From the NCBI GenBank assembly GCA_024695935.1, contig JAILHH010000001.1, positions 990 to 64,989 of the forward strand: 64,000 nt of DNA. Direction: 5' to 3'. This stretch comes from Acetatifactor sp. (GTDB lineage: Bacteria; Bacillota; Clostridia; Lachnospirales; Lachnospiraceae). How positions within the stretch are numbered: the first letter of the stretch is position 1; the number at the start of each line of letters is the position of its first letter. Under the pieces are notes generated by a model. The model ran no database searches and was not told the origin of the DNA. It saw nothing but the letters and a program-made list of their open reading frames with translations. Below, piece by piece: positions 30,929 to 35,538 of this stretch. Both the position numbers and the translations under genes were made by a program.

Positions 30929-31174
30929 TTACTGCGGCTTGATTAGTTCTTCGAATGTTACATCAAATAGGTCACAAATCTTTTGTAATTCAATATCAGT
31001 AACGTAACGCTTTTGTGTTTCAATCCTGGTTATAACATTTTTGTCGACATCGCATCCTCTAATTTGTAATTGATGAGCTAAATCGCGCTGTGAAAGACCA
31101 TACTTTTGTCTTAATTTTATAAGGTTATCTGCTATTAAGTTTTTCTTTCCTAAATCTGATAGTGGCTTTGGCAC
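30929..31174 (-). CDS. XRE-family helix-turn-helix transcriptional regulator
   Basis: LRQKYGLSQRDLAHQL HTH; 81 aa; GTG start with AGGAGG RBS; divergent from the downstream cassette. Confidence 0.8.
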   Translation of the reverse strand: MPKPLSDLGKKNLIADNLIKLRQKYGLSQRDLAHQLQIRGCDVDKNVITRIETQKRYVTDIELQKICDLFDVTFEELIKPQ

Positions 31175-31348
31175 AAAACATGCCTCCTTCTCATACCTTG
31201 AAATCTAATTTTAGCCCGAAAATACGTGCAAATCGGTTGTAAAAATGAGACAAAAATGATAACATTAAAAAATAAAGATAGAAGATTTTTATGCAAAGTA
31301 AACAAATTAGTGCTGCAGGTGATTGAAAACAAAAATAGGAGGCATCAT

Positions 31349-32653
31349 ATGGCAATCGTTGAAGTTGTTAAATATAACGGGGCGGCAAATGTTTTTGCCT
31401 GGAAATATCCAAGCGAAGAATTAGGTACTTGGACTCAGCTTATCGTAAATGAATCTCAAGAAGCTGTGTTGTTTAAAGGTGGAAAAGCATTAGATGTATT
31501 TGGAAGTGGAAGACATACTTTAGAGACAAAGAATATTCCCCTATTAAATAAAATAGTAAATCTTCCCTTTGGCGGGAGATCTCCATTTACGGCGGAAGTA
31601 TGGTATGTTAATAAGCTTTTCAAACTTGATATCAAATGGGGGACAGCATCTCCAATTCAGATCCAAGACCCTAGATATGGAGTATTTGTACCTGTAAGAG
31701 CTAATGGTATGTTTGGAATTCAGATTGATGATTCTAATAAGTTTCTTGTTAAATTAGTAGGCTCTATGCCAGTCTTTGACGAACAAAGCATTATTAAGTA
31801 TTTCAGGGGATTGTATGTTACGAAGGTCAAGGATGCTATTTCTTCATATGTTGTAAAGAAGGGAATAAGCTTACTTGAAATAAATGCTTATATCGATGAA
31901 CTTTCTTCATTTATGAAAGAAAGAATTTGTCCTGAAATGTCAGATTATGGAATTAATTTAGTTAGTTTTTTCGTAAATGAGATAAGCATTCCTGAAGAGG
32001 ATCCTGCGGTAAAGAGATTAAAGGATGCATTAGCTAAGAAAGCTGAAATGAATATTATTGGATATAACTATCAGCAAGAAAGATCGTTTGATACGATGGA
32101 ATCTGCTGTTAAAAATGAAAGTATGGGCGCAGCACCGTTTATGGGAGCTGGAATGGGAATCGGTATGGGTGTTGGCGTCGGCGGTGTAATGGCAGGTTCT
32201 ATGGCAAATCTTGCAGGACAGATGAAGTTTGATGGAAATGATAATATGATTGAATGTCCTAAATGCCATTCGAAAATGGTTAAAGGTCAAAGATTTTGCG
32301 GATCTTGTGGATTTGATGCTCAGCAGGAAGAAACTTCATCCACCACAATAAAAATAATAAAATGTGCAAAGTGTGGAGCAGATAATAAAGGAGCAAAATT
32401 CTGTATGGTGTGTGGGAAAAAATACATTCCCTGCCCTGAATGTGGTGCTGATATGAATGAGGGTGAAACATCATGTGGTATATGTGGACATGAACTTCCT
32501 ATGAAGTGTCCCAGTTGTGGTGCAGATTTGCCTAGAGGTATAAAGTTCTGTCCTGAATGCGGAGCATCTGTGGTTAAGAAATGCCCTAATTGTGGCGTTA
32601 CAATAGAAGGCAATCCTAAATTCTGCCCTGAATGCGGAGAAAGTTTGAGGTGA
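31349..32653 (+). CDS. SPFH/Band-7 (Band_7_1-like) domain protein fused to a Gly/Met-rich linker and five tandem zinc ribbons
   Basis: The N-terminus has the Band_7_1 pattern (KYP...QLIV.ESQEAVLFKGGKA.DVFGSGRHTLETKNIPLL...FGG). The C-terminus has 5x CxxC-x9-10-CxxCG. Start chosen at the ATG after RBS ataggagg. Confidence 0.75.
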   Translation: MAIVEVVKYNGAANVFAWKYPSEELGTWTQLIVNESQEAVLFKGGKALDVFGSGRHTLETKNIPLLNKIVNLPFGGRSPFTAEVWYVNKLFKLDIKWGTASPIQIQDPRYGVFVPVRANGMFGIQIDDSNKFLVKLVGSMPVFDEQSIIKYFRGLYVTKVKDAISSYVVKKGISLLEINAYIDELSSFMKERICPEMSDYGINLVSFFVNEISIPEEDPAVKRLKDALAKKAEMNIIGYNYQQERSFDTMESAVKNESMGAAPFMGAGMGIGMGVGVGGVMAGSMANLAGQMKFDGNDNMIECPKCHSKMVKGQRFCGSCGFDAQQEETSSTTIKIIKCAKCGADNKGAKFCMVCGKKYIPCPECGADMNEGETSCGICGHELPMKCPSCGADLPRGIKFCPECGASVVKKCPNCGVTIEGNPKFCPECGESLR

Positions 32654-32657
32654 TTGA

Positions 32658-33341
32658 ATGAATAGATTAAAAACAGCCACAACAATAGGATGCGTATGTA
32701 TTCTGGCAACTATTATTATTTTTGCACTCTTTCATCCAGTAATACGACTATCAACAATTGTTGCATTTATCTTTATGCTGTATGCAGAGATTGTATTTTT
32801 TGGTGGTTTTCTATTTGTTGAGATCTTGGCAAAAAGAACTTCGGGAATACTTAGTAGAGCTGGAGTAGGTGTGACTATTGCGGGTTATTCTATCGTGGTT
32901 TTTCTGTCATCATTATTGTATTTGTTACATGGAAGCTTCTTTGTTCGACGGTTTCTAATATTACAGATATTCTTCTTTGTTGTAGCGTTTGCTATAGTTG
33001 CTATTTTAGCCTCATTTGCAAATTCTGCAGAGACAAGTGATTGTAAAATTCTGCAAGCTGATGCGATGATAAATAATTTCATAACAGAATTATCATTGAT
33101 AAGAGAAAAAGTAAAAGATAAATCATTAATTGACAAATTAATTGAATCGATTCGCTTTTCGGATTCATCGGTTGTGGTTGATTGTGATATAGAAATTGAA
33201 GAAAAGATTTCACAACTAAAGAAAATTGTGGCGGATGAGCAAATAGAATCCGAAGAGTATAAAAAACTGATTGAAGAGATAGAAATCTTAATAAAAAAGA
33301 GAAATATTCAAACAAAAAATATGAAGCAAGGTGGAGTCTAG
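32658..33341 (+). CDS. Membrane protein with 4 predicted TM helices and a C-terminal coiled-coil-like tail
   Basis: Hydrophobic stretches at residues 8-28, 32-55, 62-90 and 95-120; the C-terminus is charged and repetitive (EE/KK). No recognisable family. Confidence 0.6.
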   Translation: MNRLKTATTIGCVCILATIIIFALFHPVIRLSTIVAFIFMLYAEIVFFGGFLFVEILAKRTSGILSRAGVGVTIAGYSIVVFLSSLLYLLHGSFFVRRFLILQIFFFVVAFAIVAILASFANSAETSDCKILQADAMINNFITELSLIREKVKDKSLIDKLIESIRFSDSSVVVDCDIEIEEKISQLKKIVADEQIESEEYKKLIEEIEILIKKRNIQTKNMKQGGV

Positions 33342-33354
33342 GAGGAGAATGATT

Positions 33355-33984
33355 ATGGAAAAAGTAAAGAAATCGCCGTCATGGGTTGCTATTGTATTAT
33401 GGTTTATTTTCTTTTGGCCGGTAGGTGTTTATTTGCTAATTAAGAAAGTTACAAATGACAAGTCAGCCGCAATGCACAATAGCAAAGTTCTGCTAGGCAT
33501 AGGTATTTTTTTTCTGTTTTGTGCGTTTGTTATGATTACACAGTTGTTTGATTCTTCATCAGATACCAGTTCGACGCTATCTGGAGTTCTGTTTTACGGA
33601 GCAGGTGGAGGCGGGCTTATTTATGCGGCTAAACGTCTAAAAGATACTGGTGAAAGATACAAGAAGTTCATTGATATAGTAATTAATCAGAGGCAGACAA
33701 CGATTGATAATATCGCTTCTCAAATGGGGCTTGGATATGACGAGACCGTTAATGGTTTGCAGAAAATGATTGATAAGGGTTACTTTAATGGGGCTTATAT
33801 AGATCAGGGAAATCATGAAATTGTGTTGCTTAATATAAGTAATAACCAACCTATGGTTAATGATCATATTACAAATGTGAATGCTCAGCAGAGGACAGTT
33901 AAGTGTCCTAATTGTGGTGGAAATAATATTATTTACGTAGGGCAAGTTGCAGAGTGCGAGTTCTGCGGATCACCGATAGAATAA
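33355..33984 (+). CDS. Small membrane protein with 3 TM helices, a Gly-rich segment, a possible helix-turn-helix-like region and a C-terminal zinc ribbon (CPNCGG...CEFCG)
   Basis: Start at the ATG after RBS aggagg. TM segments WVAIVLWFIFFWPVGVYLLI, VLLGIGIFFLFCAFVMI and GVLFYGAGGGGLIYAA. Confidence 0.6.
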   Translation: MEKVKKSPSWVAIVLWFIFFWPVGVYLLIKKVTNDKSAAMHNSKVLLGIGIFFLFCAFVMITQLFDSSSDTSSTLSGVLFYGAGGGGLIYAAKRLKDTGERYKKFIDIVINQRQTTIDNIASQMGLGYDETVNGLQKMIDKGYFNGAYIDQGNHEIVLLNISNNQPMVNDHITNVNAQQRTVKCPNCGGNNIIYVGQVAECEFCGSPIE

Positions 33985-34089: not shown

Positions 34090-35484
34090 ATGACTAATCT
34101 GCAACTAGAAATAGATGAGGGTATACTTCTTGAAAGTGATTCTTCATCATGGCTATCAAATGAGGATTATATACTTGAAAGTCTTGTTCTTACTAACAAG
34201 CATCTTTATTGTGTCTGTGAAAAAAGTAATGGTATTTTTAAAGGATATTCACATGAGACTATTACGTTTCTAATATCAGAAATTAAGATTATAAATGGAC
34301 AAGCATTGGTAAAACAAATAAAGATAGATGGCAGATGGTGCCTTCAAATTCAATTTAATCAAAGCATTGAATATTTTGAATTTTATGAAGTGCCAAAGAA
34401 AATTATTCCTACTTGGGTTTCTGAAATAAATAAGGTCCTGGGAATTGAGGAAATCAGTGAGCCTACAAATGGAAAAGAAACAAAATCCCAAAAGAGCGTA
34501 AGAGTTAGTAGTTTTTTTGTAAGCAAGAATCTTAAACAAGCAAATGAGACTGCAAAAGAGGCTGATTTGCTTGGTGAATCACAAGCCATCCAAGAAGTTA
34601 AACAAGATATAAAGCAAGAGATTAAGGAAGAGATAAAGCAAGAACTTAAGTTAGAAGAAAAAAGCGAAGATAATTTATTATATTGTATTGAATGTGGAAG
34701 TAAACTGTGCGAAGGAACTAACTATTGTCCGGAATGTGGTCGAATGTTAGTTCCTGGAAAAAAACATATTTTTTCAGATAAAGGGAATGCGGTGACATGT
34801 CTGGAAGAATCTGTCGACGTTTCAAGTGAACAGAAGCAACAGAGTGATGCTGAACGCTCACAATCAAATAAACAAGAAGAATATGTTGGAAAGGTTTTCA
34901 AATGCCCAAATTGTGGAGATATAATTGATTCGTTTACTCTGATTTGTCCATCCTGCGGCGTCGAGTTAAGAGGGATTGAAGCTTCAAAAACTTTGCATTC
35001 ATTTATGCTAGAGTTAAAGAATTCAGCATCAGACAGAGAAAAGGCAGCTATCATCGGTAATTTCCCCGTTCCAAATACAAAAGAGGATATTTATGAGTTT
35101 TTTGTAATGGCATCATCGAGTGTACTCGGGGAGAACTCTGAAGTGTTATTTGATGCATGGAATGTTAAAATGAACCAGTGTTATCAGAAAGCAAATTTAT
35201 CGATAAATGACGAGGCTGAGCTTGATAAGATACAGAGGATTTATGATAGTACATGTAAGCAGCTTGAGAAAAAAAGATCTAAACTCAGCGTTAATAAGAT
35301 CATATCAGTAATAAAAAAAGTTTTTTCCATTTTCCCTAATCCTATAGTTGCAGTAGTTTCGGTTTTTTTGGTAATTTTTGAAATTGAAAGACTGATACGC
35401 TTGGAATTCAATGGAACTGACATAATTTTTTGCGCTTTGATTTTAGGGCTTACATATAAGATATCATCCAAAAAACGAAAATGA
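34090..35484 (+). CDS. Bacterial PH-like (GRAM/bPH-like) N-terminal domain protein with a KQEIKEEIK repeat linker, two zinc ribbons and a C-terminal two-TM anchor
   Basis: The N-terminal 100 aa look like alternating beta strands with a hydrophobic core, typical of bPH. CIECG...CPECG and CPNCG...CPSCG. C-terminal hydrophobic helices IVAVVSVFLVIF and IIFCALILGL. Confidence 0.6.
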   Translation: MTNLQLEIDEGILLESDSSSWLSNEDYILESLVLTNKHLYCVCEKSNGIFKGYSHETITFLISEIKIINGQALVKQIKIDGRWCLQIQFNQSIEYFEFYEVPKKIIPTWVSEINKVLGIEEISEPTNGKETKSQKSVRVSSFFVSKNLKQANETAKEADLLGESQAIQEVKQDIKQEIKEEIKQELKLEEKSEDNLLYCIECGSKLCEGTNYCPECGRMLVPGKKHIFSDKGNAVTCLEESVDVSSEQKQQSDAERSQSNKQEEYVGKVFKCPNCGDIIDSFTLICPSCGVELRGIEASKTLHSFMLELKNSASDREKAAIIGNFPVPNTKEDIYEFFVMASSSVLGENSEVLFDAWNVKMNQCYQKANLSINDEAELDKIQRIYDSTCKQLEKKRSKLSVNKIISVIKKVFSIFPNPIVAVVSVFLVIFEIERLIRLEFNGTDIIFCALILGLTYKISSKKRK

Positions 35485-35501
35485 TTTGTGTACTTAATGT
35501 G

Positions 35502-35538
35502 AAAGGGTGTCAAGAAAAAATACTTGACACCCTTTTCT
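35502..35538 (+). terminator. Rho-independent terminator closing the accessory cassette
   Basis: aaagggtgtcaag-aaaaaatac-ttgacaccctttt. Confidence 0.8.

Follow-up and report, generated by a model that had tools for sequence, protein, structure and literature searches.

A candidate two-protein membrane receptor for an anchorless YdjI-like SPFH protein encoded in Acetatifactor sp.

A three-gene cassette was analysed in a 64,000-nt stretch of DNA (the window) from a metagenome-assembled genome (MAG) of Acetatifactor sp. (Lachnospiraceae). Gene 1 encodes a soluble SPFH protein related to YdjI, and genes 2 and 3 encode two small polytopic membrane proteins which we propose, with a probability of roughly 0.55, to form a membrane receptor that tethers and organizes the anchorless SPFH scaffold. 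This receptor would replace the non-homologous YdjG and YdjH proteins of the Bacillus subtilis YdjI system in a module without pspA. The proposal is built on the anatomy and conservation of the two membrane proteins, a strict gene order, the lack of a transmembrane (TM) segment in gene 1 and the homology of gene 1 to YdjI. From these observations we infer a physical interaction of the three products, their topology, their points of contact and their physiological role. An earlier note on this DNA had described the gene 2 and gene 3 products as two small polytopic membrane proteins in an SPFH cassette, a description with which both the TM predictions and the synteny reported here agree.

SPFH proteins (flotillins, stomatins and HflK/C) organize membrane microdomains in all domains of life. 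To our knowledge, the route by which anchorless members of the YdjI type reach the membrane has been described for B. subtilis only. YdjI itself is soluble, and its membrane foci and its recruitment of PspA need the membrane proteins YdjG and YdjH; binding of YdjH to YdjI was seen in a bacterial two-hybrid assay (PMC8581546).

Linkage to a soluble SPFH protein

The three genes of the cassette and the signal between genes 2 and 3 are as follows.

31346-32653, + strand: gene 1, soluble YdjI-like SPFH protein, 435 amino acids (aa); assigned from PF13421 and homologue N-termini
32658-33341, + strand: gene 2, four-TM protein with a helical tail, 227 aa; assigned from the open reading frame (ORF), hydropathy and AlphaFold2
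33340-33345, + strand: ribosome-binding site AGGAGG of gene 3, read from the sequence; overlaps the gene 2 stop codon
33355-33984, + strand: gene 3, protein with three TM segments, a winged helix and a zinc ribbon, 209 aa; assigned from the ORF, an alignment and AlphaFold2

Gene 1 is a YdjI/Band_7_1-type protein, with an SPFH domain above the Pfam threshold (PF13421; E = 2e-46, 158.7 bits against a cut-off of 24), C-terminal zinc ribbons and no predicted TM segment (no hydrophobic window with a Kyte–Doolittle value of at least 1.6). The Band_7_1 domain is followed by a Gly/Met-rich low-complexity segment and approximately five zinc ribbons, which were recognized in Pfam as DZR (92.6 bits) and Zn_Ribbon_1 matches over five stretches. 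Identity to YdjI of the B. subtilis group is 24% (BLASTP, E = 7e-21) and the domain order is identical. The start codon at 31346 agrees with the homologue N-termini, which read MAIVEVVKYNG.

Genes 1-3 and a fourth gene described below form a single operon on the + strand. The stop codon of gene 1 ends at 32653, 4 nt ahead of the gene 2 ATG, which is preceded by GAGGTG. The gene 2 stop codon (TAG) occupies 33339-33341, and the gene 3 ATG at 33355 lies 9 nt past AGGAGG. The gene 3 reading frame is open from 33331; ATG 33355 was chosen over an upstream GTG and ATG because the N-termini of homologues read MEKxKKSPSW. The earlier note had placed gene 3 14 nt after the gene 2 stop, behind a perfect AGGAGG, and had suggested co-translation. 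The ribosome-binding site is present as described, but the gap is 13 nt, and the tight spacing is better put as a tight operon or translational coupling, judged solely from that spacing. The NCBI entries K6D96_00165 and K6D96_00170, annotated as hypothetical proteins, are 100% identical to gene 2 and gene 3, respectively.

Contigs with divergent gene 2 or gene 3 homologues were fetched and annotated using profile hidden Markov models, giving approximately 14 triads. Wherever the sequence ahead of gene 2 could be read at the fetched loci, an SPFH zinc-ribbon gene lies directly upstream (the window and the loci designated L001, L004, L007, L015, L016, L018, L021, L022, L024, L026, L028 and L031), or, on short contigs, the zinc-ribbon tail of such a gene. 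With the exception of L031, this partner is a Band_7_1 SPFH protein of 400-435 aa with a C-terminal zinc-ribbon array. At every gene 2 locus with downstream sequence, one or two genes of the gene 3 family lie directly downstream (two paralogues each in L007, L024 and L026), and the triad genes share one strand with gaps of 0-50 nt. The co-occurrence with SPFH proteins across genomes that had been put forward as a check was strongly positive in these loci. The named sources are Acetatifactor, Lachnospiraceae, Clostridium, Clostridiales, Synergistaceae and the spirochaete Brucepastera parasyntrophica, and the neighbourhoods of the triads are unrelated to one another, comprising glycoside hydrolases, ABC transporters, a GGDEF regulator, P-type ATPases, phage tail genes and transposases.

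The order of the triad is retained at loci where its members have changed considerably. In the Synergistaceae MAG contig L028 (1-10618), gene 2 is cut down to its four-TM part (147 aa) and still ends in KRGGF, and the locus also encodes an additional, soluble protein of 139 aa that duplicates the winged helix and zinc ribbon of gene 3. In the Clostridiales locus L031 (151-2772), the SPFH protein is short (271 aa) with a single zinc ribbon, and long low-complexity stretches of (GA/GT)n are inserted into the cytoplasmic linkers of both gene 2 (301 aa) and gene 3 (303 aa). Between loci, the SPFH proteins share 59-82% identity; the range is 22-49% for gene 2 and 24-51% for gene 3, both of which evolve far more quickly. 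In a mirror-tree comparison, the identities of the SPFH proteins and gene 2 correlate with r = 0.78.

Anatomy of the two membrane proteins

A word-indexed search retrieved 17 gene 2 homologues, and an exhaustive profile search at E <= 1e-3 yielded 607 representatives of clusters formed at 50% identity. At E <= 1e-10 the number is 273 of the 607, and nearly all are 225-240 aa in length. Gene 2 belongs to a real and sizeable family with a fixed architecture and is not a chance ORF. By hydropathy, the TM segments span residues ~7-25, 34-52, 68-90 and 99-117, and the AlphaFold2 model, which was calculated from a 16-sequence alignment and has a mean predicted local distance difference test score (pLDDT) of 80.5, has helices at 3-25, 31-60, 63-91 and 96-151. 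Both support the four TM helices of the earlier note. The TM4 helix runs on for ~30 residues beyond the membrane, to residue 151 in the model, and with three further helices (156-166, 176-192 and 199-224) this extension makes up a C-terminal tail of ~110 aa that is helical and charged throughout. The tail had been described as a charged coiled coil; its helicity and charge were borne out, but the AlphaFold2 model suggests a bundle or hairpin of helices and not a single extended coiled coil. With a basic N-terminus, the positive-inside charge pattern predicts an N-in/C-in topology with a cytoplasmic tail.

Conservation in gene 2 was counted over 56 diverse family members. Glu44 in TM2 is kept in 52 of these, and position 103 in TM4 is polar in all 56 (Gln in 42; Glu, His or Asn in the others); buried in the bundle, this Glu44/Gln103 pair might serve in sensing or ion binding. 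An acidic loop in the tail has the pattern Y-S-D-x-S-x(5)-D, in which the two aspartates are Asp169 (55/56) and Asp177, and Tyr77, Ser85 and Arg215 are also conserved. The protein ends in a basic tail with the C-terminus K-x-G-[GS]-[IVFY]-COOH in ~50 of the 56 members, several family members terminating precisely in KRGSF.

For gene 3, 58-73 homologues were found, and the protein represents a real conserved family rather than a chance ORF. Its anatomy was derived from an alignment of 37 homologues and an AlphaFold2 model with a mean pLDDT of 77.6. Hydropathy shows two strong TM segments and a third, glycine-rich segment (YGAGGGGLIYAA) in which Gly85 is invariant, in keeping with the three TM helices and the GAGGGG segment that had been noticed earlier. 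TM1 bears a conserved S-W...F-W-P-x-G motif (kink). The loop between TM1 and TM2 is basic (net charge +3.4, always at least +2), TM2 is followed by an acidic outer loop (net -1.7), and TM3 carries on as a long cytoplasmic helix. The model then shows a winged helix at residues 117-157 (helices 117-124 and 128-141, and two strands at 148-157), a disordered linker at ~158-178 that varies from 13 to 41 residues among the homologues, and a C4 zinc ribbon with the pattern CxxCG...CE[FY]CGS, in which Cys184, Cys187, Cys201 and Cys204 are all invariant. The last of these is the C-terminal ribbon of the earlier note. The charge pattern, together with the zinc ribbon, indicates that the C-terminal half of the protein is probably cytoplasmic.

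The segment that had been described as having helix-turn-helix (HTH) character coincides with the winged helix, but its features make protein binding the likelier function. The domain is net acidic in 37 of 37 homologues (mean -3.4, range -9 to -1), its putative recognition helix has almost no conserved basic residues, and its best structural matches are the protein-interaction winged helices of PCI and DDRGK1. Pfam gave marginal matches to the same two families (PCI, E = 0.007; DDRGK, E = 0.008), both below threshold. The winged helix thus points to binding of proteins rather more than of DNA. An assignment as a DNA-binding winged-HTH regulator of the MarR, ArsR or ToxR type, which would call for a basic DNA-contacting surface and a family-level sequence match, was rejected.

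Separately, residues 6-37 of gene 3 (33370-33465) and the corresponding region of homologues recurrently matched DUF2852 with E values of 8e-4 to 4e-3, below the 22.5-bit cut-off, and one gene 3 homologue carries a prior PF11014 annotation. TM1 may be distantly related to DUF2852, and these matches were not counted as membership.

The earlier note could place neither protein in a family that it could name, and the searches led to the same result. In Pfam, NCBIfam, PADLOC and PHROGs, no model matched either protein above threshold, and sequence and profile searches of the PDB gave no match with E < 0.01; the profile search showed a weak likeness of the gene 3 zinc ribbon to Rpb12/RpoP. Neither gene has a confident match to a transporter or housekeeping membrane family in Pfam, NCBIfam or the PDB sequence searches, the outcome that the earlier note had named as refuting its view. 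Scanned one by one, the 56 gene 2 members gave scattered sub-threshold matches in their TM regions, the commonest being DUF6057 (11/56, best E = 5e-4). Fold searches with gene 2 returned only generic helical bundles; the best Foldseek match, the four-TM V-ATPase proteolipid (c subunit), is not significant (E = 1, probability 0.85). A stator of the MotA/ExbB/TolQ/ZorA type was considered and rejected, with no Pfam MotA_ExbB match for either gene; the PADLOC ZorA model matched the gene 3 TM region weakly (E = 0.016 and 0.4) and did not match gene 2.

Comparison with known SPFH systems and proposed mode of action

A primer sequence given in PMC8581546 served to retrieve the pspA-ydjGHI locus from genomes of the B. 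subtilis group, and profiles were then compared in hhalign. The two systems resemble each other in outline. Gene 1 shares the SPFH, Gly/Met-rich and zinc-ribbon layout of YdjI, and in both cases the soluble SPFH protein is encoded alongside two small integral membrane proteins. They differ in gene order, which is reversed in the triad with the SPFH gene first, and in the number of zinc ribbons, approximately five in gene 1 compared with one double ribbon in YdjI.

The membrane partners themselves are of different construction. YdjG consists of two N-terminal zinc ribbons, a domain of the YpeB/NTF2 type and a TM segment at its C-terminus, and YdjH of a TPM domain, a TM segment and a low-complexity tail (Ravi et al., PMC11237479). 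Homology of gene 2 or gene 3 to YdjH was rejected (hhalign probability 0.1-0.2%, and no TPM match in Pfam), as was homology of gene 2 to YdjG (hhalign probability 0.2%). The zinc ribbon of gene 3 does align with YdjG over 32 residues (hhalign probability 53%, E = 1.4e-4); it is the only part that aligns, and the domain order is opposite, with the TM region first and the ribbon last, which led us to reject gene 3 as a YdjG-like protein.

One further likeness lies at the C-termini, where one partner in each system ends in [KR]-G-[GS]-hydrophobic. Compared with the end of gene 2 (33321-33341), YdjH ends in ...SRGSF and YdjG in ...MGGGF (B. stercoris ydjH and ydjG, L012, 2725-4508). By a rough composition estimate, a random protein ends in [KR]-G-[GSA]-hydrophobic with a probability of ~6e-4. 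The likeness may reflect an SPFH-docking peptide shared by gene 2, YdjH and YdjG, or it may be a coincidence of glycine-rich tails.

Operons of SPFH and NfeD genes (stomatin/QmcA-YbbJ, FloT-YuaF and FloA-YqeZ) likewise couple an SPFH gene to a small polytopic protein with a cytoplasmic domain. There the SPFH protein is anchored by a TM segment or hairpin of its own, in contrast to gene 1, which has none. NfeD membership was rejected, with no match to PF01957 in genes 2-4 or in the 56 gene 2 members at E values up to 0.1-1; nor do the proteins contain an OB-fold or ClpP-like domain, the gene 2 model being all-helical and gene 3 carrying a winged helix and a zinc ribbon. An SPFH scaffold with dedicated membrane partners is a known kind of system; its gene 2 and gene 3 parts are new and unrelated to YdjG, YdjH or NfeD.

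DDRGK1 is a membrane-tethered adaptor. The likeness of gene 3 to DDRGK1 and PCI proteins is put forward as one of fold and not as a claim of membership; there is no UFM1 or COP9 context. A distant relative of gene 3, P0268 (L029, 2592-3743), keeps the TM segments and the winged helix and has an XpaC-type domain (PF10112, E = 7.6e-16) in place of the zinc ribbon; no SPFH gene is adjacent. This fusion of a gene 3-type TM and winged-helix region to the PF10112 helical domain shows that domains are exchanged with another family of small proteins with TM segments and a helical cytoplasmic domain. The gene 2 tail was rejected as a relative of the P0268 XpaC domain (hhalign probability 1.7%).

We propose that gene 2 pairs with gene 3 in the cytoplasmic membrane as a heteromeric receptor, which would recruit the SPFH oligomer and organize it at the inner face of the membrane, as YdjG and YdjH, with unrelated folds, do for YdjI in B. 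subtilis. The gene 2 C-terminal peptide, K-x-G-[GS]-hydrophobic-COOH, possibly together with the Y-S-D-x-S...D loop, would dock on the SPFH protein; the survival of this peptide in L028 despite loss of the helical tail supports such a role. In gene 3, the winged helix, which is acidic and PCI/DDRGK-like, and the zinc ribbon tethered to it would act as a protein-protein adaptor for the zinc-ribbon array or the Gly/Met-rich tail of the SPFH protein. Within the four-TM bundle of gene 2, the Glu44/Gln103 pair is a candidate sensing or ion-binding site that could couple the state of the membrane to assembly. Because the module carries no pspA gene, it would work either as a PspA-independent membrane-microdomain or stress unit or with partners encoded elsewhere.

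Genomic setting and alternative explanations

The remaining features of the locus lie on either side of the cassette.

30929-31174, - strand: small HTH_3 regulator of the Cro/C1 type (Pfam HTH_3, E = 2.2e-9); divergent, at the left edge of the island
34090-35484, + strand: gene 4, zinc-ribbon protein with a C-terminal TM segment, 464 aa (Pfam Zn_ribbon_3 and Zn_Ribbon_1)
35501-35536, + strand: terminator-like hairpin with a 14-bp stem and a T-run, just before ylxM/ffh

The G+C content is 0.32-0.38 across ~30.5-35.5 kb, compared with 0.41-0.45 on both sides, and this low-GC region splits a housekeeping string, smc-ftsY-(YitT)...ylxM-ffh-rpsP-KH-rimM-trmD. The cassette therefore looks like an acquired island in the Acetatifactor genome. 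The island is bordered by the divergent HTH_3 gene on the left and a strong terminator on the right, the latter being the intrinsic-terminator-like hairpin that closes the operon of genes 1-4. The HTH_3 gene, which matches generic HTH models in PADLOC, is a possible local regulator of the cassette; HTH_3 genes are also found close to the cassette in L001 and L015, at varying positions, and the linkage is inconsistent across loci. Gene 4 consists of an N-terminal domain of ~130 aa without assignment, two zinc ribbons, a helical region and a TM segment at ~410-436. No homologue of gene 4 was found at any other cassette locus, zinc-ribbon cross-matches aside, and it was rejected as a member of the conserved module. 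It may be a lineage-specific addition or a stand-in for the second gene 3 paralogue found elsewhere.

Several observations weigh against the receptor proposal. No homologue of PspA, YdjG or YdjH was found in the window or at any fetched cassette locus, and the analogy to YdjI may thus not hold at the level of function. The motif that gene 2 and YdjH have in common at the C-terminus is short, and the glycine-rich tail of YdjH raises the chance expectation. Three loci (L008-L010) have the SPFH gene and gene 3 without gene 2, and L027 has a distant pair of gene 3 genes without an adjacent SPFH gene, so that neither partner is strictly obligatory. In the mirror-tree comparison, the SPFH proteins and gene 3 correlate with r of only ~0.1; this value was not used as evidence on gene 3 because gene 3 paralogy confounds it. 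Finally, the low-GC and mobile-element contexts are explained by an accessory or conflict function no less well than by a housekeeping role in the envelope.

A bolder form of the proposal, which we put forward tentatively and do not expect to hold in full, takes the triad to be an undescribed, horizontally mobile membrane system that has no pspA gene within it or nearby. In this form, YdjI-type SPFH proteins would be captured at the membrane by way of a [KR]-x-G-[GS]-hydrophobic-COOH peptide that is either convergent or retained in otherwise unrelated anchors (the gene 2 family, YdjH and possibly YdjG), and the four-TM bundle would be a sensor or effector, possibly in phage defence.

Among the alternatives, the one that survives best, although we consider it unlikely, is that the triad is an accessory conflict module with an anti-phage, abortive-infection or superinfection-exclusion function, in which gene 2 is a membrane-permeabilizing or ion-conducting effector that the SPFH cage and gene 3 would restrain, or would trigger once infection disturbs the envelope. 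The low-GC island within a housekeeping string, a genomic neighbourhood that differs at each locus and the small HTH_3 regulators close by in the window, L001 and L015 would all suit such a module, as would the fast evolution of the partners (22-51% identity) beside a conserved SPFH protein and the conserved buried Glu and Gln of gene 2. Two loci would also suit it. In L024 (1918-8845), an IMG/VR contig (IMGVR_UViG_3300009117_000010), the genes SPFH/gene 2/gene 3/gene 3 are followed directly by a phage module of the contractile-tail or PBSX-like type, with an HK97 gp10-like protein, a tail terminator, sheath and tube proteins and an XkdN-like chaperone, and L028 is flanked by a resolvase, AbiEii and a DDE transposase. 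The database searches point the other way. The defence models of PADLOC-DB v2 gave no match at E <= 0.01 for genes 1-3 (none at all for genes 1 and 2, and only weaker ones for gene 3), PHROGs gave nothing significant for genes 2 and 3, and a scan of viral contigs returned none with the gene 2 alignment and only three with that of gene 3. Typical defence genes are not consistently adjacent, and the literature searched (on Band_7_1, COG4260, and SPFH with zinc ribbons or defence) contains neither a description of this triad nor a link between SPFH zinc-ribbon proteins and defence.

It is less probable still that genes 2 and 3 are clients that the SPFH assembly encloses or regulates, with, for example, ion or proton conduction by gene 2 as the output. 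There is a precedent in the enclosure of FtsH by HflK/C, an SPFH cage around a membrane client that is cited as established in PMC10936438. The intramembrane carboxylate Glu44 and the invariably polar position 103 of gene 2 would suit this reading, as would the V-ATPase proteolipid as best fold match, although that match is not significant. Against this, an SPFH protein without an anchor of its own needs a tether, for which genes 2 and 3 are the sole conserved candidates; the roles of client and anchor are, however, not mutually exclusive.

Least likely, and in our view improbable, is that gene 3 is a transcription factor, either tethered to the membrane like ToxR or CadC or set free by regulated proteolysis, whose winged helix would bind DNA and whose activity the SPFH protein and gene 2 would control, so that the cassette would be a signal-transduction unit: combinations of a zinc ribbon and an HTH do recur in membrane-stress systems (DUF2089 is so described; PMC11237479), and the flexible linker and cytoplasmic position are compatible with this role, but the winged helix is net negative in every homologue with a putative recognition helix nearly free of conserved basic residues, its best sequence and fold matches are protein-interaction domains of the PCI/DDRGK type, the many loci with two gene 3 paralogues, one of them soluble in L028, fit an adaptor better, and P0268 exchanges its zinc ribbon for an XpaC-type helical domain and not for a signalling domain.

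The analysis delineates two protein families that lacked annotation, one of them comprising at least 600 sequence clusters, which take the place of YdjG and YdjH beside a well-conserved clade of SPFH zinc-ribbon proteins in gut and sediment anaerobes; annotators could name both families, now listed as hypothetical proteins, SPFH-associated membrane proteins. The gene 2 C-terminus offers a candidate docking motif that is open to mutagenesis, and the compact three-gene module is suited to heterologous work on SPFH assembly or to screens for phage defence or envelope stress. If the receptor proposal is true, the triad would be a second, independent answer to the problem of SPFH recruitment, and if the candidate docking peptide also proves to be one, it would provide a general recruitment rule for the YdjI-type SPFH clade.

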